This document shows, piece after piece, positions 6,112 through 63,016 of a DNA stretch of 64,000 nucleotides. The stretch is from NCBI GenBank assembly GCA_943349725.1, contig CALQZP010000001.1:5401-69400 (forward strand), written 5' to 3'. How positions within the stretch are numbered: position 1 is the first letter of the stretch; the number at the start of each line of letters is the position of its first letter. This DNA is from Candidatus Nomurabacteria bacterium (GTDB taxonomy: Bacteria > Patescibacteriota > Minisyncoccia > Phycocordibacterales > UBA10002). The notes beneath the pieces are model-generated. The model was not told the origin of the DNA. It made no database searches and saw only the letters and a program-made list of their open reading frames with translations. Position numbers and translations under genes: made by a program.

Positions 6112-7611
6112 ATGTTACAGAAACTCTCCGACCAAAAAATTTTCTGGGGAATGATAACGCTCTATGTTGTTGTTTTTGGAACCCTTACGGTTTTGCGCCA
6201 TGACAATTTTCAAACGCAAACGTGGGATATGGGAATCTTTACACAATCCTTTTGGAACGCGTCTCATGGCCGTGGACTCGTGAACACCATAGAACAGGTG
6301 CCAAACCATCTGGGCGTGCACTACAGTCCCTTTCTCTTTTTGCTTGTTCCCGGATATGCACTTTTCCAAGGTTTCTCTGCACAGGCGGGTCCCTACTACC
6401 TCCTTATCATGCAGGCACTCGCGCTCGCGCTCGGAGCCTGGCCTCTTTTCCTCCTCGCAAAAAAGCTCCTCGCTGAACAAAGCATTACTTCTTCATGGTG
6501 GCCTTTCGCGATTACCCTAGCCTACCTCCTCTATCCCCCGCTCCATGCGTTACAGATGTACGATTTTCATGAAGTCGCCTTCTTTGTCCCTCTCTTGCTC
6601 TTCGCCCTCTATTTTCTTGAGACAAAAAAATGGCTCTGGGCGGGATTGTTTTTACTTCTCGCAGGAGCCACCAAAGAAGATGCTATCCTTGTCGTCCTAT
6701 TTGTCGGACTGTTTCTACTGGCCAAGCGAACTTCTCTTCAGAAAAACGGCCTACCGTCAGGAAAGCGCACCAAGAATATAGTCGCGGGGATCATCATTGT
6801 TTCTGCTTTTGTGTATTTTCTTCTTGTTGCCAAAGTGCTCATGCCTGCGGAAGGTGGTGGTTTGTTACGAATTGATAGATACGCGCACCTTGGTGAAACG
6901 GGACTAGAGATAGTGAGTAGCGCGATAACTCATCCACTTCTGCTTCTACAGACGGTGGCTACCCTGCCGAAAATAGAATATTCCTTTTGGCTTCTGCTCC
7001 CGGTCTTGTTTCTCCCGCTTCTGTCGTGGCGAGCTCTCATCCTCCTTATCCCCGGACTCGCTGAAAACCTCCTCACCAATTACACACCTCAATTCAGCAG
7101 TGCGTATCATTATGATGCGCTGCTCATACCAGGACTGTTTCTCGCGACTATCTATGGTGCAAAAATTGCGTTGCTCAGATTTCCGGACAGAGAAAAACAA
7201 CTGCGTCTGCTTTTCCTAACCGCGATGCTTGTAGGCTTTCTGACCAACTCTCCGCTTCGTCCAACAGCTTTTCCGACCGATTATTTCCACACGTCCGAAA
7301 AAAAGGTGGCATATCAGAATCTGGTGCGCCTCGTTCCGCCAGAGGTAAGCGTGTCGGCCGATACCAATCTTGTTCCCCACATGGCGAACCGTGAAAAGAT
7401 ATACTTTGCTGGCTTCGAACCCGAGCTCTCCGATATCGCCTTGCTGAACACCGAGAATATGTTTGGTTTTGAAAACACAGAGACAATCGGAAACTATATT
7501 GAGAGTTATGAAAGATCAGGAGAGTACAACCTCTATGTCTTCGACGACCGGTATGTGGTTCTTCTCAATAAAAAATTGAAAGTGACTGGTTTACCCGCGC
7601 AGGCGCAGTAG
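6112..7611 (+). CDS. DUF2079-family polytopic membrane protein (putative GT-C glycosyltransferase)
   Basis: 499 aa; N-terminal RHDNF-TWDMGIFTQSFW motif and TM-rich layout match DUF2079. Confidence 0.45.
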   Translation: MLQKLSDQKIFWGMITLYVVVFGTLTVLRHDNFQTQTWDMGIFTQSFWNASHGRGLVNTIEQVPNHLGVHYSPFLFLLVPGYALFQGFSAQAGPYYLLIMQALALALGAWPLFLLAKKLLAEQSITSSWWPFAITLAYLLYPPLHALQMYDFHEVAFFVPLLLFALYFLETKKWLWAGLFLLLAGATKEDAILVVLFVGLFLLAKRTSLQKNGLPSGKRTKNIVAGIIIVSAFVYFLLVAKVLMPAEGGGLLRIDRYAHLGETGLEIVSSAITHPLLLLQTVATLPKIEYSFWLLLPVLFLPLLSWRALILLIPGLAENLLTNYTPQFSSAYHYDALLIPGLFLATIYGAKIALLRFPDREKQLRLLFLTAMLVGFLTNSPLRPTAFPTDYFHTSEKKVAYQNLVRLVPPEVSVSADTNLVPHMANREKIYFAGFEPELSDIALLNTENMFGFENTETIGNYIESYERSGEYNLYVFDDRYVVLLNKKLKVTGLPAQAQ

Positions 7612-8298
7612 AAAAACTTTCCAAAAACTCTCAAAGATGATGTTCCAGTTAAACTTTGACAAGCCGATCTTCCGTTCGGTAAAGGTAATCGGTATTTCAC
7701 AAATGCGAAATCCCGCTTTGTGCGCCAGGTAGGTGGTTTCAATCTGGAAGTTGTAGCCAACCGAACTCAAGGCAAGGAAGTCTATGGCTTCAAGTGCTTC
7801 TTTCCGGAAACATTTAAATCCACCGGTAAGGTCGTGGTACGAGAGACCCAAAATGATGCGCGCGTAGAGATTACCGAACTTGCTGATGAGTCTGCGAGAA
7901 AATCCCCATTGCTCTATCTTTCCACCCGGCACATACCGCGAACCGAGTACTAGGTCGGAGGCTTTTGAAGCAGTGAGCAGAGCAGGAATAACGAGAGGGT
8001 CGTGCGAGAGGTCGGCGTCCATTTGGATAATGCGCGAGCCCGCTGGAGCCTTAGAAAGCACCTCCTTAAACCCCGCCACATACGCGGTCCCTAGTCCCTG
8101 CTTCCCTTCCCGATGCAACACGCGGAGGGGATACTTCTTCGCAAGTTCGTCAGCAATCTTTCCGGTTCCATCGGGAGAATTGTCGTCCACCACCATAAGC
8201 TCAAGTTCGGGTATTTGCAACGCAAAAATCCTCTCCAACAAAATGGGGAGGTTCTCACGCTCATTGTAGGTTGGGATAACAATGAATGTCTTTGACAC
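7591..8298 (-). CDS. polyprenol/dolichol-phosphate mannosyltransferase (GT2, Dpm1/Ppm1-like)
   Basis: 235 aa; IVIPTYNEREN, MVVDDNSPDGT and the DAD motif are typical of the GT2 Dpm1 family. Confidence 0.85.
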   Translation of the reverse strand: MSKTFIVIPTYNERENLPILLERIFALQIPELELMVVDDNSPDGTGKIADELAKKYPLRVLHREGKQGLGTAYVAGFKEVLSKAPAGSRIIQMDADLSHDPLVIPALLTASKASDLVLGSRYVPGGKIEQWGFSRRLISKFGNLYARIILGLSYHDLTGGFKCFRKEALEAIDFLALSSVGYNFQIETTYLAHKAGFRICEIPITFTERKIGLSKFNWNIIFESFWKVFLLRLRG

Positions 8299-8361
8299 AG
8301 GTTGATTCTAGCAGAACGCGGAAAAAACTCATCTACACGGTATCTACCGTCGTGGCAAACA

Positions 8362-8447
8362 AATAAAGTTTGTCCTCGTCCTATCCCTGCCGAGGTCTTA
8401 CGAGGGAACAGCTTGCTGCGGGGGATAGGACGAGGACAAACTTTATT
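8362..8447. repeat. long perfect hairpin (26 bp stem aataaagtttgtcctcgtcctatccc), family copy 1
   Basis: Perfect inverted repeat seen directly; the stem sequence is shared with the hairpin at 54123-54206. Confidence 0.7.
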
Positions 8448-8482
8448 ATGGCATATTTTCGTGTTGTGCGCTTAAAAAACTC

Positions 8483-8634
8483 CTGTAACTCTCCACGCCT
8501 GTCGAAATAAGGCTCTCTTGTTCCTCCTTTACTAAAGGAGGTGCCGAGTCTCTCGAGGCGGAGGATTTTTAAATCCCTCGGCCTACGGCCACTCCCTTTA
8601 GTAAAGGGAGAATAAGATGTGTGGAGAGTTACAA
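8483..8634. repeat. nested multi-hairpin palindromic region
   Basis: Outer stem gtaactctccaca/tgtggagagttac encloses two smaller palindromes (cctcctttactaaaggagg and ctccctttagtaaagggag). Confidence 0.5.
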
Positions 8635-8690
8635 ACTCCTTGAAGTTGCAAAAAGAAAACCGCTCCATTCGCCGAGGCGAATTGGAGCGG

Positions 8691-8791
8691 TAATTTGTTG
8701 TGGTGAACGCCGCATCGTTCACCTGTTAACCCAAAGAACTATCGCGCAAAGCGGTGCGCGAGCCCGTTTTAGAAAACGGGCAAAATGTTAC
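8691..8791. repeat. about 100 nt direct repeat, copy 1 (palindrome gtgaacgccgcatcgttcac plus cccgttttagaaaacggg hairpin)
   Basis: Roughly 96% identical to 9528-9624; overlaps the stop codon of the 8788-9393 gene. Confidence 0.75.
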
Positions 8792-9393
8792 GGGTCGCAC
8801 TCCGCGAGGGAGTTGACCCTGGGAACCTCCGCGGGCGGATCGAGGAGAAGTTCCTCGACCGTCGGGAGTGAATCCTCCCCCCTCCGGAGTAGCCGTGGGC
8901 AGTCCACGACCACGAAGCCTCCGTTTACCAACGCCTCCTTGTTGAGGTGCCGGTTAACCGCGGCGAGCGGCCAAAGGGGGTGGATGGGCGACGGGGAGGG
9001 GTCCCACTCCCCGTGGAGCTCGTCCCAAAGCTCGCGGTACTCCCAGTCTTTCGCAGGGCGCTCGTGCGCCCGGCAGTGCTCGTTCCGCTCAAGCACATTC
9101 GCCCTCTTGGTGAGGGCCATTGCCGTTGGCACCCGGAGGAGCGGTGCCGGAATACACAACCTTTCGTCCCCACTTTCAAGGCGGAGGACAAAGAGGTCGT
9201 AGTGGGCCTGACTGGCGCACTCGCCGGCAGGGTCGTCCGTTTCGAGCTCGACGACGAGCCCCTTCGCCGCCTCTTCACCCCTGAACAGGGCGTCAAGGAG
9301 GAGGCAGAAGACCGTGTTTGGCAGGGTGTAATTTTCCCCTGCCCCGATGTCTTTCGCCCTGTCCGCGAGGGCGAAAAGTTTTTTGATATCCAT
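8788..9393 (-). CDS. hypothetical protein, GC-island paralog family (copy A2)
   Basis: Translation is about 70% identical, with conservative substitutions, to 33938-34564; start at MDIKKLFALADRAK is preceded by a GGAAAGGAAGT RBS. Confidence 0.65.
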   Translation of the reverse strand: MDIKKLFALADRAKDIGAGENYTLPNTVFCLLLDALFRGEEAAKGLVVELETDDPAGECASQAHYDLFVLRLESGDERLCIPAPLLRVPTAMALTKRANVLERNEHCRAHERPAKDWEYRELWDELHGEWDPSPSPIHPLWPLAAVNRHLNKEALVNGGFVVVDCPRLLRRGEDSLPTVEELLLDPPAEVPRVNSLAECDP

Positions 9394-9527
9394 ACTTCCT
9401 TTCCGGCGCAACATCGCGCCAAGAAGTTTTTTTCTCGATAGGCCGACGATTGGTTTCCACACACATGGAAATCCTCGGCCTAATGAAGTCCAGCACCAGA
9501 AAATCCTTCGATTTGTTGGTGCTGGAA

Positions 9528-9624
9528 ATTGTTGTGGTGAACGCCGAATCGCTCACCGTTAACCCAAAGAACTATCGCGCAAAGCGGTGCGCGAGCCCGT
9601 TTTAGAAAACGGGCAAAATGTTAC
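9528..9624. repeat. about 100 nt direct repeat, copy 2
   Basis: Near-identical to 8691-8791. Confidence 0.75.
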
Positions 9625-9657
9625 CCTTTCACCGCCCCGTAGGACGGCGGGAGGTGA

Positions 9658-10119
9658 TCAATACCCGACTGGGTACCACCACCTGGTGTGGCTCGGTCCC
9701 GGCTTCCACCTTGTCCCCGTGTCGGGGTGGGACTCGAATCCCTCCTGGTGGTTGGGGGTGTAAAACCCCTTCTCCACCTCCTCGTCCAAGTAGACGAGGT
9801 CGTTGAGGGTGGCCCGGCGGAGATGGGCCCAGTTATGCCTACACACGGAGCTCCCGCCCCAGTGGGAGACTCGTTGCGAGTCAACCCCCTCCCTGTACAC
9901 CCATGGGAGGGTGAACAGGGAATTCTCCCTGTTGTTTCTGGCCGAAACAACAACCCCCTGCTGATAGTGGGTTCCAAGAACCCACCCCTCCATATCGAGG
10001 GTGGCGTAGAAAACCCCGTCCTGCTGGTGCAGGTGACGGATGGACCCCTCCTTCGAGAAGTCCATAATTTCCGCCAACGAACCCGCCACCGCCACTCCCG
10101 TAATTTCAATTTTTTTCAT
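9658..10119 (-). CDS. hypothetical protein (GC-island gene A1)
   Basis: 153 aa ORF; AAGGAAG RBS before the ATG; about 65% GC; no recognised family. Confidence 0.5.
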   Translation of the reverse strand: MKKIEITGVAVAGSLAEIMDFSKEGSIRHLHQQDGVFYATLDMEGWVLGTHYQQGVVVSARNNRENSLFTLPWVYREGVDSQRVSHWGGSSVCRHNWAHLRRATLNDLVYLDEEVEKGFYTPNHQEGFESHPDTGTRWKPGPSHTRWWYPVGY

Positions 10120-10749
10120 TTTCTTCCTTCTTTTTCTCTTTTTTTTGTTGTTTGTTTCTTTGAACCCTGTTTAAAGTCGATGATTCAACGACTTTTGCCC
10201 AATGCTTACACAACATCGAGCTACCGAAACGACCGATTTCTCGGTCCTACCCAGAGCCTCCAGTTGGGCCAAGGGTGCTCTATCTCGGAATCGCAGTTAA
10301 TGAAATGCGACCCCTCTTGCTCTGCCGACACAGGTCGGCAAGGCGAAGAGGAGTAACATTTCGGAACGAATGACCGCTCCGCGTCTTCCTGTTTGAGGTT
10401 TTATCTTCACCTCAAACTTTCTTCTGCCTATTCGGTTGTCAAAGAATCAAACATACAGTATACCATGTACCATATATAAAGTCAATAGGTGGGGAGGGCT
10501 GAAAAAGCTATGATTAGAGCCATGAAAAACTCCGCCTTTATTGATGCGCAAACTGAAAAAGGAAGTCAGAGAGAAGATAACAGGACTTATGTACACCCCT
10601 CCCGCGCTAGACGCGTGTGTGCTCCCCTTGTTAGGGGAGAATTAAGACAAAGTTGCGTAAGTCCTAGATAAATTATATGAATAATCTTAATCATAAAATC
10701 GGCAGAGGTTGGAAACGAAAACGCACCGCGCAGACACGAGGACTGCGAG

Positions 10750-29131: not shown

Positions 29132-29185
29132 ACAAGAAGTGTAGCAAATTGTGCTACAGGCCGTCAAACAGCATCTTCCTAACAC

Positions 29186-29226
29186 AAAACCGCCCCGATG
29201 TAACATCGGGGCGGTTTTGTTTTTCG
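29186..29226. terminator. bidirectional Rho-independent terminator
   Basis: Stem ccgccccgatg / catcggggcgg with an A-run upstream and ttttgttttt downstream. Confidence 0.7.
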
Positions 29227-50848: not shown

Positions 50849-51001
50849 ATGAGCTTCACCTACAACCCAAAAAGAAAGAAACGAGCACGAACACACGGTT
50901 TTCGCTCCCGCATGGCTACCCCCGGAGGTCGTTCGGCTCTTTCCAGACGACGCGCTAAAGGACGTAAGAAGCTTACGGTAAGTCGAAAGAAAGCCTCCTA
51001 G
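50849..51001 (+). CDS. rpmH: 50S ribosomal protein L34
   Basis: 50 aa [24 protein letters not shown]...; below the ORF-track size cutoff, found by manual translation. Confidence 0.85.
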
Positions 51002-51005
51002 GAGC

Positions 51006-51037
51006 AAAAAAGCCTGCCTGTTGGCAGGCTTTTGTTA
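51006..51037 (+). terminator. Rho-independent terminator after rpmH
   Basis: aaaaaagcctgcc tgtt ggcaggcttttgtt. Confidence 0.7.
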
Positions 51038-51064
51038 TAGGGCTTACACATTTCGCACTTTTCT

Positions 51065-51140
51065 GTCATTCCAGCGAAAGCTGGAATCCAGTGTTAGGCC
51101 ATTTTCTGAAGTCCTGGATTCCAGTTTTCACTGGAATGAC
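51065..51140. repeat. twin-hairpin palindromic element (gtcattccagcgaaagctggaatcc family), copy 2
   Basis: attccagc-GAAA-gctggaat hairpin plus ggattccag-ttttca-ctggaatgac hairpin; shares its 5' half with 2763-2817. Confidence 0.6.
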
Positions 51141-51182
51141 ACCGATTGAGCAGGTTCTATATAAGCTAAAAGCTCTCCTTCA

Positions 51183-51521
51183 ATGCTCCCCAAATCAAAA
51201 CGTCTCACCACCGAGGACTTCAAAACACTGAAGGGTGGGCGAACCACGCACACTCCCCACCTCATTCTCCGCCTCTCCCCTGCACCTGAAGGAGTGGGAA
51301 AATTTGCCGTTGTGGTGTCGTCTTCAAACTACAAACGAGCGGTTGACCGCAATCTACTTAGACGACGCCTTTACAGCCTCATTAAGAGGCTTCTCCCACT
51401 TCTCCCAAAAGGTATCCTCACCGTCACCTGTAAAAAGGGAGCACTCCTTGCGACCTTTTCGGAGTTAGAAAACGAGGTACACTCCTTGTGCGCAAAAAAG
51501 CCCACATCTACGGCAGTCTGA
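51183..51521 (+). CDS. rnpA: ribonuclease P protein component
   Basis: 112 aa basic protein, KSKRL...FAVVVSS RnpA pattern, follows rpmH. Confidence 0.8.
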   Translation: MLPKSKRLTTEDFKTLKGGRTTHTPHLILRLSPAPEGVGKFAVVVSSSNYKRAVDRNLLRRRLYSLIKRLLPLLPKGILTVTCKKGALLATFSELENEVHSLCAKKPTSTAV

Positions 51522-52912: not shown

Positions 52913-53070
52913 CAGGTAACTGGAACTAAGATTTCGCGTGACCGAGTTTCTTCTTGAATCCACCAAGTTGGTCTGAAATACAATACTGTTGCTATTAGTA
53001 GGTTTTTAACATAAACCTACTAATATTTGTTGACTTTAGCAGGTTTAGGTATTAAACTTACGGAGCCCTT

Positions 53071-53802
53071 ATGGTAACTAACGGTAAAATAAGAATAAGT
53101 GAAGCAGCAAAGATACTTGGCGTATCCGTCCCTACTCTCCGTAATTGGGAAAAGTCTGGGAAACTCCGTGCAGAAAGAAGCGTTGGCAAACAACGCTATT
53201 ATAATCTTACCGACCTACAAAAATTTGTTGTTGATGTAGAGGGTTTAGGATTGATATGGGCGACGAGTGCAATACCGCAAGAACTTCCCCGTGAGTACTA
53301 TTGTGAGTCGTCGGATCGTTTTACAACTCGAGTAACAAGGATGGGCGCCGAACTTCAAAGAGATGGTCGTTTCTCCGGAGCGTTGGATTCGCTCATTACA
53401 CTAGTTGCTAGCGAAATAGGCGACAACTCTTTTGCGCACAATTTGGGCAATTGGCAAGATGTTCTGGGTATGTTCTTCGCCTACGATCTTGAAAAGAAGA
53501 TCATAGTAATAGCTGATAGAGGACAAGGTGTTAAGACAACCCTTCTGCGAGTCAGACCGTCCCTTGCCAGCGATATGGAGGCATTGAAGGTTGCTTTTAC
53601 GGAGATAATTTCCGGGAGAAACCCGGAAAAGAGAGGAAACGGATTGAAGGTTGTGCTCAGGGTGCTGGAATCACGTGAAGTAGGACTTTTTTACCGGTCT
53701 GGAATTGGAGTCGTCACTGTTCCAGTTGAGAAGCCTGGCTATCTCACGATAGGCACGGCAGATCAAAACGTACGCGGGATGTATTGTGTTATTAAGTTTT
53801 AG
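53071..53802 (+). CDS. MerR-family HTH fused to a GHKL-type (RsbW/SpoIIAB-like) ATPase/kinase domain
   Basis: N-terminus ISEAAKILGVSVPTLRNWEKSGKL is a MerR HTH; the C-terminal half has GHKL N-, G1- and G2-like boxes (EIGDNSFAHN, IADRGQGV, GNGLKV). Confidence 0.5.
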   Translation: MVTNGKIRISEAAKILGVSVPTLRNWEKSGKLRAERSVGKQRYYNLTDLQKFVVDVEGLGLIWATSAIPQELPREYYCESSDRFTTRVTRMGAELQRDGRFSGALDSLITLVASEIGDNSFAHNLGNWQDVLGMFFAYDLEKKIIVIADRGQGVKTTLLRVRPSLASDMEALKVAFTEIISGRNPEKRGNGLKVVLRVLESREVGLFYRSGIGVVTVPVEKPGYLTIGTADQNVRGMYCVIKF

Positions 53803-53809
53803 ATTTATT

Positions 53810-54127
53810 ATGCAAACAATTTATCTTAAGAAGTTCGGTAACGTCCTCGTAGGACGACCCAACGGGCAAGAAGCTTTTAATGCTCTTAGACCTGAGTTAA
53901 ATCAAGATCAGTCTGTTCAGATTGATTTTAGTGACGTACTTACTGTCAATCCTTCGTGGCTTGATGAATTTCTTACCCGCCTTGCTGATTTCAACCAGGG
54001 AAAGGTTCAATTACTTCCCACCAGTAACGCTTCTGTGCGAATAGCGCTTCCAGTGCTAGTAATGGAGCGCAAAGATTTTGTAGCTGACATAGTAAACCGG
54101 GCTATAAAAGAAATGGGACTTAAATAA
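53810..54127 (+). CDS. DUF4325 (STAS-like) domain protein
   Basis: 105 aa; IYLKKFGNVLVGRPNGQEAFNAL...VQIDFSDVLTVNPSWLDEFL matches the DUF4325 STAS-like pattern. Confidence 0.5.
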   Translation: MQTIYLKKFGNVLVGRPNGQEAFNALRPELNQDQSVQIDFSDVLTVNPSWLDEFLTRLADFNQGKVQLLPTSNASVRIALPVLVMERKDFVADIVNRAIKEMGLK

Positions 54128-54206
54128 AGTTTGGCCTCGTCCTAGTCCCCAAAGCTCGCTCTGCTCGGAAGACCTCGGCGAGGTATTAGGCGAGCCAAAC
54201 TTTATT
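54123..54206. repeat. long hairpin, family copy 2 (aataaagtttggcctcgtcct...gccaaactttatt)
   Basis: Lies between convergent genes and likely acts as a bidirectional terminator; stem sequence shared with 8362-8447. Confidence 0.65.
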
Positions 54207-55401
54207 CAGTCATCTGCAGGCTCCAGAGGGTCCCGCTCACTTTGTCGGTAAAAACCAAGAATTTGTCGTCAGTGCTCACTTGCGGGTGCGTGAGGTCAAT
54301 CGGACTTCCCCGCTTCTCGCTAATATCTAAGATTCGCTCGGTAACTCCCGAAGGTGAAATACTCCACACCTCGTCGGTAAAGGGGATGACCCCTTGATAC
54401 CACACGTCAGGATAGCTTCCAGTGGGGATTTCCTTGGGGACGCCACAATAAAATATGGTCCCGCCTTTGTTCCACGCGCATTTTTCGGGGAAGGTGGTCA
54501 CGCCGACCTGTGTACGCGCGCCGGTTGTCATATTGAAGAGTGAGAGCGAGATGGAAGCTTCCCTGCTTGAGGAAAAGAGTACTTCAGGTTTGACCGGATT
54601 GGGGAGCGCGGTAAGGCCGGGGGTATTGCGGAGCACAAGTGAGGTGTTACCGGTGCCGGGGTCGAGCGAGAGAAGCATACCGTCGGCCAAGAACGAAGGC
54701 TTCGAAAGCAAAAAGATTTTGTTTTGAGATGGCCATAGGACGAGCCATTCATAAAGGGGCGAGTCCCAAAGCTGTGTTCTCCCGTTTCCCGCAAGGTCGC
54801 TTCTAATTCCTATGGCCCCTCCATTTTTCTCGGTGAGGTAAAAAAAGCTCGTTCCGTCGGGAGAGACAGCTCCATCGAGTATTCCGCGCGGGAGAAAGGT
54901 TCCGGCAAGCTCTCCTTCTGCCCCGGATGCTTCGAGGTTGACGCGTGCCGAGAAGGATTCAATCACCTCACTATCGTCGCGAAGATATCGTGAGATGAGG
55001 GTGGTACCCGATTTACTCCACAGCGCTTCATAGACCTTCGGAATGGTCGTATTCGTGAGGCGCTTCTCCCCTTCCGCATTTGCGCCTATTTCAAAGATAT
55101 TTCCGGTGGCCCTGTCCTGATAGCGGACAATCGCCTCGCCACTCCGTACTCCCAGCACCGCTCCTGCGGTCGGTTCTTTGGAGAGTTGTCGCAAGATAGG
55201 CTCAAACGCCCCCGGTTTTTCTTCGGGGAGCACCACGGGAGGCTCTTGTTTGGGCGTAACTTCGTCGCCTACCCCCGGAAAGGTGCCTCCGCCATCTGGC
55301 GAAACCGGCTCCTTGGTAAACAGGAAATACAGAAAGATACCGAGGGCTACCAAGAGGAGCACCACAACGACCCCTATGATGATTTTAGTTCTTCGGGACA
55401 T
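54202..55401 (-). CDS. N-terminally membrane-anchored protein with beta-propeller-like (PD40/TolB-like) ectodomain
   Basis: 399 aa, one TM helix, Pro-rich linker, repetitive beta-rich segments. Confidence 0.35.
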   Translation of the reverse strand: MSRRTKIIIGVVVVLLLVALGIFLYFLFTKEPVSPDGGGTFPGVGDEVTPKQEPPVVLPEEKPGAFEPILRQLSKEPTAGAVLGVRSGEAIVRYQDRATGNIFEIGANAEGEKRLTNTTIPKVYEALWSKSGTTLISRYLRDDSEVIESFSARVNLEASGAEGELAGTFLPRGILDGAVSPDGTSFFYLTEKNGGAIGIRSDLAGNGRTQLWDSPLYEWLVLWPSQNKIFLLSKPSFLADGMLLSLDPGTGNTSLVLRNTPGLTALPNPVKPEVLFSSSREASISLSLFNMTTGARTQVGVTTFPEKCAWNKGGTIFYCGVPKEIPTGSYPDVWYQGVIPFTDEVWSISPSGVTERILDISEKRGSPIDLTHPQVSTDDKFLVFTDKVSGTLWSLQMTE

Positions 55402-59212: not shown

Positions 59213-62200
59213 CTATTCCTTCCCTTCCGCCGCCTTCAGCTCATCCTTTGCAGCCTTGATGGAGAGGAGTTGCGACGGGTCGGAGGTAATGATTTGGTCT
59301 TCGGTATAGGAAGCAATGATTTTGATGGCGACATGCTTGAGGCCCACGAAGAAGAGCCCCTCCCCTACGTCAGATTCAAGCAGGAGATATTTCTCTTCAT
59401 CCGTTAGGCTGAAAATAGTTTGGAGCTTGTCCACCACCGTTGGCGATTGCTTGAGGAGCATCTGCATTGAGGAGTTGGTGAGAATGGGGAGTCCATAGGG
59501 CGACTTCAAAAAGTCGTCCACGTCTTGAGTAATAGTAGAAAGACCGAGGTAGTATTTGCGTCCACGTTTCGCAAGGCCAAGAAGGAACGAAGCGGTGTCC
59601 TCCGATTTCATCATCCACCACGCCTCATCAATCACCATCAAACGTTTCTTGAGCTCCTTTCTGATGGAGTTCCAGATGAAGTGCATTACGATATACATTG
59701 CGGCAGGCTTCAGCTCATCTTCCATATCGCGGAGTGAAAAGACGATAAAGTTTGAATTGATGTCCACGTTTGACGGTTGGTTGATAAAGCCCGCCCACGT
59801 GCCGTGCGTATATTTGGAAAGACGCTGTACAAGCGACTCGGCTCCTTGGATTCCCGCAAGCACCAATTCAAAGTCGGAAAGAAGCGGTGGCTCTATTTTT
59901 GAGAAATCAGAGTCGGGAGTAATGTCCTTCAGCGCGTAAGTTTCGGCAATGGCGCGGTCAATCATCGCGTCTTCCTCCGCGGAAAGCCCTCCGAGGAGAA
60001 TGCGAAATAGTCCCACCAGGTTGATGATGTTTGAGCGTAGCACGTCAGCCGGAGATTCGTCTTCTCTTGGGGGCGCAAGCTCAAAAGGGTTGATATGGTG
60101 CTCCGAGTTGAGTGAGATGTTGAAGTATTTTCCGCCTGTTGCCTCCGCGAGGTATTCATACTCGCGTTCGGGGTCAATGACAATCACGTCCGTGCCGAAC
60201 ATCAGTGAGCGCAAAATCTCAAGCTTGGTCATATACGAGTTATGCACGAACATACCGCCATATCCCGCTAAGAATACTTCGTTATCCACCGTTAAATCAT
60301 AGACATATCGTTCCGTTTTGTTTGTGAAAGGTTCAATCGCCACAATCTCGTCCCACGCGAGGTCTGCAGTCGCCAACTTCTCCAGTCGCACGAGTAGCTC
60401 CCGCACACGAGGAATGTTGTTGCATAAGGAATGGTAACGGGCAGAAATGAAGGAGGACGCCTGCGTCAGCATTTCATAAGAGGTGTTGGCTTCAGGGTGG
60501 ATATGAAGGGCTGTTCGAAGTGAAGGGTTATGATACTTCATTGGCTCGCCTAAGAATTCGAATCCCTCGCTTATCGCTTCTTTGAGCTCGGGTAGTCTGG
60601 GTACGTCAATTCCCATACAGGAAAGAGCGGTAACGGCATTTGCCATTCCGGGCATCTTTCCTTTTTTCATTGTCGCAAAGCTTGAGCCGAGTTCTTTCCA
60701 TAGCAGGGCGTTTACGGCTTTGCTCTGCTTTGCCACTTTTATAATATCCGCAATGGTAGGCAATCCAGTGAGAACCCTGAAAAGAGCCCGCTTTGATTCA
60801 ATGTCCCGTATCACCATTCGTATGTCGGCAATGACTAGTTTTAACTGCCTCGGTGATGGGTTAAAGACACCACGTTTGAGGGGACTCCAATTCTTTCGGC
60901 CACGCATCGCTTTGCCGAGAAGCGCGTCAATTTCTTGAAAGAGTGGAGGAAGTCCGGGAATGATATCTACATTCGTATTTTCGGCTCGCTTCAATGTAAG
61001 CAACATCCCTTTTTTTCGTTCCGATATGAAATTGATATGTTCTCGAAATGACGACAGATTCTTCTGCCCCGATATGGTGAGCAACGAATAGTCCTCCTTA
61101 GATTTTCCGGGTATGAGCTTTTTCCTTACCGCCAAACGACTGATGACGCCAAAGTTATACAGCAAGTAGCAGAGGTCGGAGGTAAGCATTCTTGATTTTG
61201 AGACTGCGGTTATGGTCGGTCCGTCCACTCCGCCGTCACCCTCAAAATAGGCAGAGAGGAAAGCCGTCTGCGCGTTTCGTGGGCTTTCAAAAATGATGGA
61301 AGGAACTCGTTTGGTTGCCGATTTTTCTTGTAATCCGATTATGGCGAGAAACTTTACGAAAATAATATCGCTTATAACCACACTTTTCGGTGTAAGGAAA
61401 TGTTGCACTTCCAAAGTGGTAAGAGCCGTACAAACGTCCTGTATCACTTCAGGGTCAATGTTGCTTATAATCGCAACCTTCTTTCCTATAGTCCCTTCGG
61501 ACACCAAATACCCAAGTATTTTTGCAAGTGCGGGAGTGACGGTATAGAACGCGGGTAGCTTTCCTGTCCCGCTCGCGGAGATAATGAAGCACTGTGCTAG
61601 GCGAGCGTCGGTTATCTCAAGAGAAAGGCAGGCAAGTAGTTTGCGAAAATAGGAGATTGGTACGCGCCTTCCGGCGGCATACTTGTAAAGATAGCGGTCA
61701 AATCGTGAGTCAATAACCTCTGTCCTAAGCAAGCGTCTGTATTCCACCATAAGCGGTGCGACTCCGGTAACATATACACGCGAGTCCGCCATATGTTTTA
61801 GTAGATTGAGTGTGAGTGGAGAGGTTGTGCCGTTCTTTACTTCTCGTGGCAAGGGTACATATTCACCTAGACCGATATCCGCGCTCTTGGTGGCAACCAC
61901 TTCTCCCTTCCGAAGCACCAGCATATTATGGTCGCCTGTAGTTTCCACCACACGACCACTGCGAGTTTTGAAACGGTACAGTTCTTGCGGAGCGTCTTTT
62001 CGTGCCGCAACCGTTACTCTGCTCCACGTGCCCTTCATCTCTTTATCAAAGCTCCATACTTCAAGTCCTGGGTCAATAACCCCTTCTAGTTCGTGGTCAA
62101 TTTGCATCACCCCACGTTCCAAAATTGCTTCCTCAACAATATCCCCGATCGGCCGAAGTAACACTCGGTCATTTTTTCGCATGAGCACAGGTTCGTGACC

Positions 62201-63016
62201 AAGAATGCTCTTGCCCGAACCTGATTTAGCTAGGGTGATTGAGTTGTAGTTCTCCAAACTGAAGCGGTCAAAGAGAACAAGGGAAGCGTTGTGACGGTTG
62301 ATGCCGTAGAGAATGCCCTTGTTGGAAGTAAGGTCAAACGAGAGAAACGGAAACACGCTTGAAAGTGGAGAAGAGTTGAGCTTCGTGTGCACCATAAGCT
62401 CGTCGTTGCCAAGCGGAGAGGTGGAACGAAATCCTTGCTCCTGCTGAAAGAGAGCCGGTTTCATAATGACGAGTTTGCTTTCAAGAAGCGAGCGTATTTC
62501 ACTCTCGGTCTTATCAAGCTCGTTCTCATCTCCCGCATAGATGGTGAGATAAATACCGACATCAAAAAGCTTTTCCTGCGCCTGCAGAAGGTCATCACGA
62601 AGTTTCTCAAGGTCTTGGTAGGCTGTCTCAAGCATCGGGTCGCGTACGAGCCCCTTCTTCTCACGGTCCGCCATTTGACTCTGGACCTCCGCTACTTTTT
62701 TCTGGAAGGTGCGCAGTACCTTGGCGGTATCCACCGGGTGAATAAAGATACTGATGTCAAAAACCTTATCAAGATTGATAATGGGCGCGAACCAGCCTTC
62801 GGTGAGGTAACGGGGGTAGGAAATGACAAAGAATGTTCGCGTCATCTTCCCGCTCACGTTGAGCGACTTCGCCTCTATCTTGAGAGCCGCGGGGGCGATG
62901 ACATCTTGGAGTTCAAGCGTGCCAGATTGGTAAATCTGCTCGGGGAGAAATTCCGCGATATCCTTGTCCGCTTTTTTCTTGTTGAAGAAATTAAAAAACC
63001 CCATAATGTTTACCAA
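59213..63016 (-). CDS. VirB4/TraC-family conjugation/T4SS ATPase interrupted by an intein
   Basis: 1267 aa; Walker A AKSGSGK|S is split, and rejoining gives GSGKSYMTKLE; Walker B MVIDEAWWMM lies in the C-extein. Confidence 0.75.
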   Translation of the reverse strand: MVNIMGFFNFFNKKKADKDIAEFLPEQIYQSGTLELQDVIAPAALKIEAKSLNVSGKMTRTFFVISYPRYLTEGWFAPIINLDKVFDISIFIHPVDTAKVLRTFQKKVAEVQSQMADREKKGLVRDPMLETAYQDLEKLRDDLLQAQEKLFDVGIYLTIYAGDENELDKTESEIRSLLESKLVIMKPALFQQEQGFRSTSPLGNDELMVHTKLNSSPLSSVFPFLSFDLTSNKGILYGINRHNASLVLFDRFSLENYNSITLAKSGSGKSILGHEPVLMRKNDRVLLRPIGDIVEEAILERGVMQIDHELEGVIDPGLEVWSFDKEMKGTWSRVTVAARKDAPQELYRFKTRSGRVVETTGDHNMLVLRKGEVVATKSADIGLGEYVPLPREVKNGTTSPLTLNLLKHMADSRVYVTGVAPLMVEYRRLLRTEVIDSRFDRYLYKYAAGRRVPISYFRKLLACLSLEITDARLAQCFIISASGTGKLPAFYTVTPALAKILGYLVSEGTIGKKVAIISNIDPEVIQDVCTALTTLEVQHFLTPKSVVISDIIFVKFLAIIGLQEKSATKRVPSIIFESPRNAQTAFLSAYFEGDGGVDGPTITAVSKSRMLTSDLCYLLYNFGVISRLAVRKKLIPGKSKEDYSLLTISGQKNLSSFREHINFISERKKGMLLTLKRAENTNVDIIPGLPPLFQEIDALLGKAMRGRKNWSPLKRGVFNPSPRQLKLVIADIRMVIRDIESKRALFRVLTGLPTIADIIKVAKQSKAVNALLWKELGSSFATMKKGKMPGMANAVTALSCMGIDVPRLPELKEAISEGFEFLGEPMKYHNPSLRTALHIHPEANTSYEMLTQASSFISARYHSLCNNIPRVRELLVRLEKLATADLAWDEIVAIEPFTNKTERYVYDLTVDNEVFLAGYGGMFVHNSYMTKLEILRSLMFGTDVIVIDPEREYEYLAEATGGKYFNISLNSEHHINPFELAPPREDESPADVLRSNIINLVGLFRILLGGLSAEEDAMIDRAIAETYALKDITPDSDFSKIEPPLLSDFELVLAGIQGAESLVQRLSKYTHGTWAGFINQPSNVDINSNFIVFSLRDMEDELKPAAMYIVMHFIWNSIRKELKKRLMVIDEAWWMMKSEDTASFLLGLAKRGRKYYLGLSTITQDVDDFLKSPYGLPILTNSSMQMLLKQSPTVVDKLQTIFSLTDEEKYLLLESDVGEGLFFVGLKHVAIKIIASYTEDQIITSDPSQLLSIKAAKDELKAAEGKE
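60239..62209 (-). mobile_element. intein (about 657 aa) with double-LAGLIDADG homing endonuclease inside the VirB4 P-loop
   Basis: Ser1 directly after the GSGK; block B TTGDHNMLVL; LAGLIDADG motifs ILGYLVSEGT and LSAYFEGDGGV; C-terminal ...FVHN followed by Ser+1. Confidence 0.7.

Follow-up and report, generated by a model that had tools for sequence, protein, structure and literature searches.

The window analyzed here, a stretch of 64,000 nucleotides, carries genes for PMT, DUF2079, Dpm1, a Mur ligase, DnaA, RnpA, YidC and Jag as well as a T4SS-like cluster, and the nearest homologues of its genes carry the names Patescibacteria, Parcubacteria and Candidatus Taylorbacteria, so that the window can be assigned to the CPR. 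Patescibacteria (CPR) possess tiny, streamlined genomes with almost no intergenic space. Long hairpins occupy two of the gaps between genes. Copy 1 is located 64 nt upstream of the gene for a Dpm1-like glycosyltransferase (7591-8298, minus strand), at the edge of an island (8448-10749), and copy 2 lies between the convergent genes 53786-54127 (plus strand) and 54202-55401 (minus strand), the stop codons of which both fall within the terminal AATAAA/TTTATT of the hairpin. The conserved genes of the T4SS-like cluster (TraC-like, TraG-like, PrgI) end with the minus-strand gene of this pair. Within this cluster, the gene of the TraG-like P-loop ATPase (59213-63016, corresponding to L120 10477-14268) contains, according to Pfam, an intein that harbors a LAGLIDADG homing endonuclease, and the same intein arrangement is found in the TraG-like gene of Candidatus Taylorbacteria relatives.

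Copy 1 consists of a 26-bp stem and an interior of 34 nt; the arms of the stem (8362-8387, AATAAAGTTTGTCCTCGTCCTATCCC; 8422-8447, the reverse complement without mismatch) are 100% complementary. The calculated MFE of the RNA is -52.3 kcal/mol for the plus strand and -47.9 for the minus strand; compared with the folding energies of dinucleotide shuffles, which served as reference for both hairpins, this corresponds to z = -9.6 and z = -8.1, respectively, and none of 200 shuffles folded equally well. Of 21 positions in the left arm of copy 2 (AATAAAGTTTGGCCTCGTCCT), 20 agree with copy 1, and position 12 has G for T. Its stem is imperfect: 13 perfect pairs come first, groups of 3 and 6 pairs are then set off by two single-base bulges (22 in total), and its MFE is -40.9 (z = -5.7/-5.2). 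Both hairpins are thereby confirmed as real and far beyond chance. An earlier note on this DNA had described a perfect 26-bp stem for copy 1, and this is borne out, as are the locations it gave, i.e. upstream of Dpm1 beside the island and between convergent genes at the edge of the T4SS-like cluster. Its proposal to fold the sequences likewise places both copies far outside the shuffles. The note had also assigned the same stem to copy 2, which holds for the arm sequence and fails for the hairpin as a whole, as the latter is bulged.

According to the same note, the two hairpins differ in their interiors. This turned out to be incorrect once copy 1 was read on the minus strand: aligned with the plus strand of copy 2, 70 of 88 columns are identical (80%, full length), including GCAGCAAGCTGTTCCCTCG.AAGACCTCGGC, versus 66 of 91 columns when both copies are aligned in the same orientation. 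The better alignment of minus with plus strand indicates that copies 1 and 2 are the same element, inverted relative to each other. The 21-mer AATAAAGTTTGKCCTCGTCCT occurs three times in the window at ≤3 mismatches, whereas 0.00 occurrences are expected (100 shuffles). The parts of both hairpins are compiled in Table 1.

Table 1. Positions of both hairpins and of their parts in the window
Feature	Position	Strand	Basis or remark
Copy 1, hairpin-A-only family member	8362..8447	sense strand minus	profile and CM matches
Copy 1, right arm on family sense strand	8362..8387		26 nt; exact complement of left arm
Copy 1, family left arm	8422..8447		AATAAAGTTTGTCCTCGTCCTATCCC on minus strand
U-rich tract UUUAUUUGUUUG	8356..8367	minus	sequence; 3' of G+C-rich stem part on minus-strand transcripts from island ORFs
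Copy 2, hairpin-A-only member	54123..54206	sense strand plus	profile and CM matches
Copy 2, left arm	54123..54146		holds TAA stop (54125-54127) of DUF4325-like gene 53786-54127
Copy 2, right arm	54185..54206		holds stop 54202-54204 (TTA on plus) of 399-aa gene 54202-55401 (-)

A repeat family with three hairpins

JGI metagenome contigs were scanned with the 19-nt arm AATAAAGTTTGNCCTCGTCC, which yielded 64 loci, ~58 of which extend into the same conserved element. The contigs bearing the family are Parcubacteria-like (Patescibacteria). Candidates L035 and L049 as well as the phage contigs L038/L055 were discarded as chance matches to the arm. As the family was collected by exact match to the 19-nt arm, both its diversity and its taxonomic range are undersampled. 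A hairpin with both exact termini (AATAAAGTTTG N45-75 CAAACTTTATT) was not found in 185,579 representative genomes, the 22 matches all being unrelated, A+T-rich chance matches. Viral contigs (IMG/VR) scanned with the arm, the A/B junction and hairpin C likewise returned chance matches only, the covariance model (CM) finds no member among them, and no annotated plasmid or phage matched a full element in blastn. Rfam searches of the window and of 20 loci yielded only tRNAs at or above the gathering score and nothing relevant at E ≤ 10; the best match of a full element had E = 7.2. The literature searched for such repeats in CPR, Parcubacteria or Patescibacteria provided no description, and to judge from it, the CPR have so far been without a described interspersed repeat family. 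In sum, a real and widespread family is at hand, which seems to have escaped annotation.

The element was defined from the alignment of 29 distinct full-length copies. At full length it measures 165-275 nt and comprises three hairpins, A-B-C, between the conserved ends AATAAAG...CAATAAA. On the sense strand, hairpin A reads AAUAAAGUUUG / GCCUCGUCC / UCCCCGC - variable loop - GCGGGGUA / GGCGAGGC - 7-nt bulge - CAAACUUUGUU and is made up of the stacked helices P1 (AAUAAAGUUUG:CAAACUUUGUU), P2 (GCCUCG(U)CC:GGCGAGGC) and P3 (UCCCCGC:GCGGGG), with a variable apical region and the bulge (AUCGGGG) on the 3' side. The linker GUUGUAG(A) is located 3' of hairpin A; hairpin B (GUCGGC-UCC-GCCGAC) has a conserved GUAG on its 5' side. 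Hairpin C, UUGCGGAUUCAUCCCCGCC - loop - GGCGGGGUAUUCUCCGCAA (in detail UUGCGGA-UUCA-UCCCCGCC...GGCGGGG-UAUUC-UCCGCAA), has the core AUCCCCGC...GCGGGGUAUU in common with hairpin A, and the tail of the element is UUACAAUAAA. A long-range stem GUUGUAG/UUACAAU is possible, in which U-A is changed to C-G in 6 loci. The apical loops are the 2-5-nt centres of near-perfect DNA palindromes and not typical RNA tetraloops. The ends of the element (AATAAAGTTTGG... and ...TTACAATAAA) are direct rather than inverted, and as the flanks are unconserved save for an A-rich bias, AATAAA at both ends is the only constant boundary feature. Elements of 84-275 nt are without coding capacity, their sole ORFs being spurious read-throughs.

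The paired architecture is reflected in the alignments. In the alignment of 20 sequences, 92.4% of the cells are paired, in comparison to 36-49% in slid controls, and 11 pairs are changed on both sides versus 5.5 ± 1.5 in shuffles, none of 500 being as high. In a 60-sequence alignment, which was fitted to the CM and includes weak matches, 93.2% are paired and 31 pairs show two-sided changes versus 13.1 in shuffles. Counts of G-U against A-C, used for strand assignment, are contradictory (44 vs 43 overall; 10 vs 43 without the two fixed wobbles).

Both window copies match positions 1-92 of the profile only, that is hairpin A from the first to the last paired base of P1. Copy 1 scores higher on the minus strand in nhmmer (48.9 versus 34.7 bits on the plus strand), reaches 53.7 bits with the CM (E = 3e-12) and is 81% identical to hairpin A of loci L086, L072 and L058. 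Copy 2 scores higher on the plus strand (44.8 versus 12.9 bits), reaches 39.5 bits with the CM (E = 1e-8) and is 77-78% identical to hairpin A of L072, L058 and L031. The window hairpins are shown to be homologous, oppositely oriented and truncated members of a dispersed non-coding repeat family of Patescibacteria, and each is only the first module of the larger three-hairpin element. A profile HMM and CM search of the whole window detected no family copies beyond these two. A further 12 kb of the same contig (k141_995313, 89.9 kb, ENA ERZ27280297) contain none either, i.e. there are 2 in ~76 kb total, and none were found in ~100 kb from the closest relatives. Another long hairpin (51064-51141; 28-nt arms, 93% complementary) sits between rpmH (50849-51001) and rnpA (51183-51521), just past a canonical terminator at ~51006-51035; it was rejected as a family member, since its 20 CM bits derive from structure only and it has no sequence in common with the family.

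The window copies deviate from the family by better pairing. Both are without the 7-nt bulge, and the conserved U-G wobble is changed to U-A. Copy 2 retains the right-arm sequence of the family (GGUAUUAGGCGAG), whereas in copy 1 the right arm is also without the internal loop and has been rewritten in its entirety as the exact complement of the left arm. A corresponding change is seen in hairpin C of four loci, where the right arm is an exact complement with GGGGAUGAAUCCGCA in place of GGGGUAUUCUCCGCA. Changes that arise several at a time and all restore pairing are characteristic of quasipalindrome correction through intrastrand template switching, a process by which imperfect hairpins of the family may have been perfected. 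From this wholesale perfecting of arms we infer that family sequences extrude as DNA hairpins.

Dispersal of the family and its genomic neighborhood

Several properties of the family are those of a dispersed repeat. In metagenome Ga0209541, 8 contigs carry copies that are 97-100% identical next to 8 different flanks, and every one of these contigs ends inside the element. Logan contigs L024 and L026, which stem from two different runs, both end at window position 8391, 30 nt from the element base at 8362. Logan graphs are built with k = 31 (PMC12424806), and an end at the first 30 nt (k-1) of copy 1 is as expected from a branch introduced by other copies with that 30-mer; the arms of copy 1 itself have only 26 nt in common, so the hairpin cannot cause this break on its own. 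Deletion and mosaic derivatives are frequent: A-left/C-right arm fusions (~65 nt) are present at six loci, hairpin A is fused to the tail in L033, and in L030 arm-only stubs are located directly 3' of stop codons. Synteny is lost exactly at the element between L058 and L079 after 1,047 identical nt, between L072 and L085 after 2,946 nt, and between L054 and L087/L060, though synteny breaks at repeats in metagenome assemblies can alternatively reflect chimeric joins.

Other mini-palindromes are nested within the element at differing positions and are also found alone elsewhere. One of them, the 33-nt CCCGCCCGTACCGAAGCGGTACGTTCGGGCGGG, resides inside the elements of L032, L036, L054 and L087 at two different positions and alone at L036 5921-5953, L060 1554-1585 and L096 3968-3986, so that it may represent a further palindromic repeat family of smaller size. 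Likewise, a 60-nt insert (GCGACCTAAATTTC...) is found again in L094 (564-617), which is closely related to the window genome.

Every copy with examined flanks falls in an intergenic gap between main ORFs, and at ~9 of roughly 50 sites examined the TAA stop of the upstream gene coincides with nucleotides 3-5 of the element. The genes next to the copies have ordinary housekeeping functions (dnaK, miaA, alr and UDG, for instance); genes between close pairs of copies, as analyzed by Pfam, are housekeeping genes as well, without transposase or integrase. All-against-all clustering of 639 neighboring ORFs revealed no recurrent protein, only spurious ORFs running through the repeat. When the joined 200-nt flanks of each copy were compared with all loci by blast, no match spanned an empty site, and inspection of the element ends revealed no target-site duplication beyond the constant AATAAA and no clean empty site. 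Presence/absence polymorphism is seen at the window sites themselves, as the element is absent at both orthologous sites in relatives with 72-82% aa identity.

Upstream of Dpm1, the hairpin is absent in L094, L096 and L097 (77-82% aa identity), while the promoter-proximal sequence TTCTGCTAGAAT is kept in relatives with 77-82% identical Dpm1 (L094-L097). The island adjoining copy 1 spans 2.3 kb between the Dpm1 and Mur ligase genes and has a G+C content of 56% versus ~48% elsewhere. It is missing in L096/L097, where the distance from the Mur ligase gene to Dpm1 amounts to 91 nt, and is replaced by one different gene (204 aa) in L094. Its two minus-strand ORFs (8788-9462, 9658-10119) have no match in Pfam or PADLOC. 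A direct repeat of ~110 nt lies behind each of the two ORFs (8682-8791, 9516-9624); 67 nt of it are identical, and it contains terminator-like hairpins. A composite imperfect palindrome (8516-8617; 28-nt arms, 82% complementary) adjoins copy 1, and each of its arms is a small palindrome itself (CCTCCTTTACTAAAGGAGG / CTCCCTTTAGTAAAGGGAG).

At the second site, the 399-aa gene of L098, L100 and L101 (72-75% identity) has the same stop codon position (...QMTE*), and the hairpin is absent. In these relatives a 23S_rRNA_IVP/bAvd gene follows directly on the 3' side, whereas in the window the hairpin and the cassette 53071-54127 are found, which encodes a MerR-type HTH protein (243 aa) and a DUF4325 STAS-like protein (113 aa) in genes overlapping by 17 nt. 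The MerR-type protein has a weak PADLOC match to 'mad1', which is confined to the HTH. In the distant relative L066 (35-64% aa identity), a full-length element (L066 5444-5611) is located between Jag and the 399-aa gene, while in L122-L124, which hold the one relative that was found for the 399-aa protein of L066 (49% aa identity), merely 5 nt separate Jag from the 399-aa gene, without an element (L122 1977-1983). At 49% identity these sequences are too diverged to provide a base-level empty/filled junction. The presence of the element in L066, of cassette and hairpin in the window, and of neither in L122-L124 indicates that the Jag/399-aa gap has been occupied independently or repeatedly. The gap is a recurrent landing place, taken by the element (L066), by cassette plus hairpin (window), by the bAvd gene (closer relatives) or by 5 nt (L122-L124).

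Taken together, the comparison with relatives shows both window copies to be lineage-specific and to lie at junctions of conserved genes with strain-specific cassettes. Permissive intergenic sites would yield the same association of hairpin and cassette. The hairpin is present at one boundary only of each cassette; at the far boundaries near 10413 and 52993, CM matches are insignificant, and putative remnants at 10301-10425 (E = 0.22) and 52996-53056 (E = 4.4) were rejected. On the far side of the island, a small terminator-like hairpin (10395-10425; GTTTGAGGT...ACCTCAAACTTTCTT) has the base GTTTG...CAAACTTT in common with the P1 stem of the family; with a CM E-value of 0.22, which is not significant, it may be a family remnant or a coincidence.

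The earlier note had grouped the hairpins as a family that could consist of REP/MITE-like elements, reused terminators or boundary markers, and as a check it had proposed a genome-wide search for the stem motif and an examination of whether copies flank acquired blocks. About 58 homologues in other Patescibacteria contigs, multicopy within single metagenomes, have now been found; both window copies adjoin lineage-specific cassettes and are absent at orthologous sites, and three contig pairs break at the element. In outline, its reading is therefore supported by the further copies and the boundary association.

A probable terminator role and competing explanations

On either strand, the hairpins present an A-rich leader, a G+C-rich stem of 20 bp (GUUUG...CAAAC) and a U-rich trailer. 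The trailer of copy 1 is UUUAUUUGUUUG on the minus strand, which also carries the island ORFs and Dpm1, and those of copy 2 are UUUAUUCAGU (plus strand) and UUUAUUUAAG (minus strand). Canonical bidirectional terminators are present elsewhere in the same genome, e.g. at 29181-29223. Among 23 copies with both neighbors known, 20 are faced by at least one gene 3' end. In co-directional gaps the orientation of the element is unbiased (7 sense versus 8 antisense), as expected for a two-way device. The gap types (5 convergent, 15 co-directional, 3 divergent) resemble those of any intergenic element and provide no specific support for termination. A simple terminator scan, which is limited to loops of 8 nt, does not call the hairpins, the stems and 34-nt interiors of which are much larger than in canonical terminators. 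From the geometry of leader, stem and trailer, which gives circumstantial support, we infer that the hairpins probably function as two-way intrinsic terminators or insulators.

We favor, with somewhat better than even confidence, an account in three parts: the hairpins are members of a dispersed family at these sites, the family would spread as a non-autonomous element similar to REP/BIME or MITEs, and its members would serve as bidirectional terminators or insulators. Recombination of copies with each other could generate the deletion mosaics and the synteny breaks. At their present sites, the window hairpins would act as bidirectional intrinsic terminators or insulators, copy 2 stopping both convergent genes, whose stop codons fall in its AAUAAA ends, and copy 1 keeping minus-strand transcripts of the island ORFs from running on into the conserved Dpm1 promoter.

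In an unlikely alternative, a trans-acting Y1 (HUH) transposase would move the family in single-stranded form, either as a palindrome-associated element (PATE) derived from IS200/IS605 or in the REP/RAYT manner, in which case the similar cores of hairpins A and C would be the recognition hairpins of the left and the right end. The full-length element resembles a substrate of this kind in being devoid of terminal inverted repeats, in having the same hexamer AATAAA at both ends, two subterminal hairpins with a common core on one strand and the conserved GUAG 5' of hairpin B. The wholesale perfecting of hairpins, which points to extrusion as DNA, and apical loops that are palindrome centres instead of RNA tetraloops agree with it, too. 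However, tblastn with IS608 TnpA and E. coli RAYT as probes found nothing at E < 0.1 in the 722 kb of loci, the clustered ORFs include no recurrent neighboring protein, and the window copies are without hairpin C yet apparently multicopy.

The lack of terminal inverted repeats, the identical AATAAA ends and the two similar recognition hairpins would also permit a new type of element. We consider it rather doubtful that A-B-C represents a new small mobile element or structured RNA/ssDNA restricted to Patescibacteria and mobilized in an unrecognized way, with hairpin A as a self-propagating portable bidirectional terminator and a seam for cassette swaps.

Slightly less credit is given to a family of structured ncRNA genes with a trans or cis role other than termination, of which the window hairpins would be functionless decayed fragments. 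Its strength is the multi-helix architecture with compensatory changes, including those of the long-range GUUGUAG/UUACAAU (6 loci), and loops carrying expansion segments of variable length as in many structured RNAs. Yet no Rfam match was obtained even at E ≤ 10, the flanks are unconserved with no evident promoter, orientation to neighboring genes is unbiased, and the G-U/A-C counts (44 vs 43; 10 vs 43) give no consistent strand. Moreover, truncated, mosaic and identical copies at many loci are the behavior of a repeat, not of a gene.

That the hairpins are sites of site-specific recombination, attC-like or Xer/dif-like, which bound exchangeable gene cassettes, is improbable. Both copies are positioned exactly at cassette edges with stop codons in the hairpin ends, as is common at attC, and synteny breaks at elements, but the core-like motifs GTT...AAC, present on both strands, run in reverse of attC (RYYYAAC...GTTRRRY), each with a mismatch. 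There is no array and no integrase beside any copy, only one boundary of each cassette has a hairpin (E = 0.22 and 4.4 at the others), and most family members sit behind ordinary housekeeping genes. Finally, ordinary gene-specific terminators, alike by chance or through one local gene conversion, would account for two copies in the window that are both downstream of genes, but this is refuted by ~58 homologous copies in unrelated contigs, by the profile matches of the window copies, by 0.00 chance matches expected for the shared 21-mer and by homology running through the non-stem interior.

A structured multicopy palindrome of this kind, which is located at gene ends, synteny breaks and cassette borders and has other mini-palindromes nested in it, would be of practical consequence. 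It would break up CPR MAGs during assembly, mark the plasticity of these genomes and be a candidate for the insulation of CPR transcription units, and the covariance model built from the family alignment offers a direct handle for its genome-wide detection.

Comparison with known systems

The REP/BIME sequences of proteobacteria (REPINs) are likewise extragenic, non-coding imperfect palindromes, which assemble into modular mosaics of several hairpin motifs, are frequent at gene 3' ends and have a GUAG motif beside one hairpin. Their many near-identical copies per genome have a possible counterpart in the at least 8 near-identical copies with distinct flanks in one metagenome. REPs at gene 3' ends act as terminators or mRNA stabilizers. 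However, with 84-92 nt hairpin A has 2-4x the length of a REP, whose palindrome comprises ~20-40 nt, and A-B-C is a fixed arrangement rather than the variable cluster of a BIME. Further differences are the phylum, Patescibacteria, the low copy density (2 in ~76 kb) and the lack of any match to the RAYT probe in 722 kb.

The MITEs known as Correia/CREE in Neisseria, RUP in pneumococci and ERIC in enterobacteria resemble the family in being 100-300 bp long, non-coding and rich in secondary structure, in their presence/absence polymorphism between relatives, in insertion near gene ends and as substrates of recombination. For Correia and ERIC, terminator and insulator effects are documented. The full-length element differs from them, as it is without terminal inverted repeats and ends in direct AATAAA hexamers, and neither a target-site duplication beyond AATAAA nor a parent IS was found among the loci examined. 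Solely the hairpin-only derivative resembles a pure inverted repeat, which the window copies are throughout.

PATEs of IS200/IS605 share with the family the lack of terminal inverted repeats, similar subterminal hairpins near both ends on one strand and a conserved short boundary sequence. Such a hairpin pair is present in the full element; for the window copies, which are without hairpin C, the comparison is inapplicable. Neither TnpA nor TnpB was found in the loci examined. Integron attC sites are different in the order of their motifs (GTT...AAC in the family), and the window copies are single, 46 kb apart and have no integrase among their neighbors. With bidirectional intrinsic terminators the hairpins have in common the symmetry of A-tract, G+C-rich stem and U-tract as well as their location, which for copy 2 is between convergent genes and for copy 1 between an operon upstream and the promoter that follows. 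They differ in stem length (22-26 bp instead of 5-14 bp), in the size of the interior (34-40 nt instead of 3-8 nt) and in having a sequence common to unrelated loci and genomes. Being too long for a REP, devoid of terminal inverted repeats and with no target-site duplication shown, the family is neither REP nor classical MITE. It is therefore filed, while lacking defining features of each, as an interspersed extragenic palindromic repeat that resembles REP/BIME sequences and MITEs.
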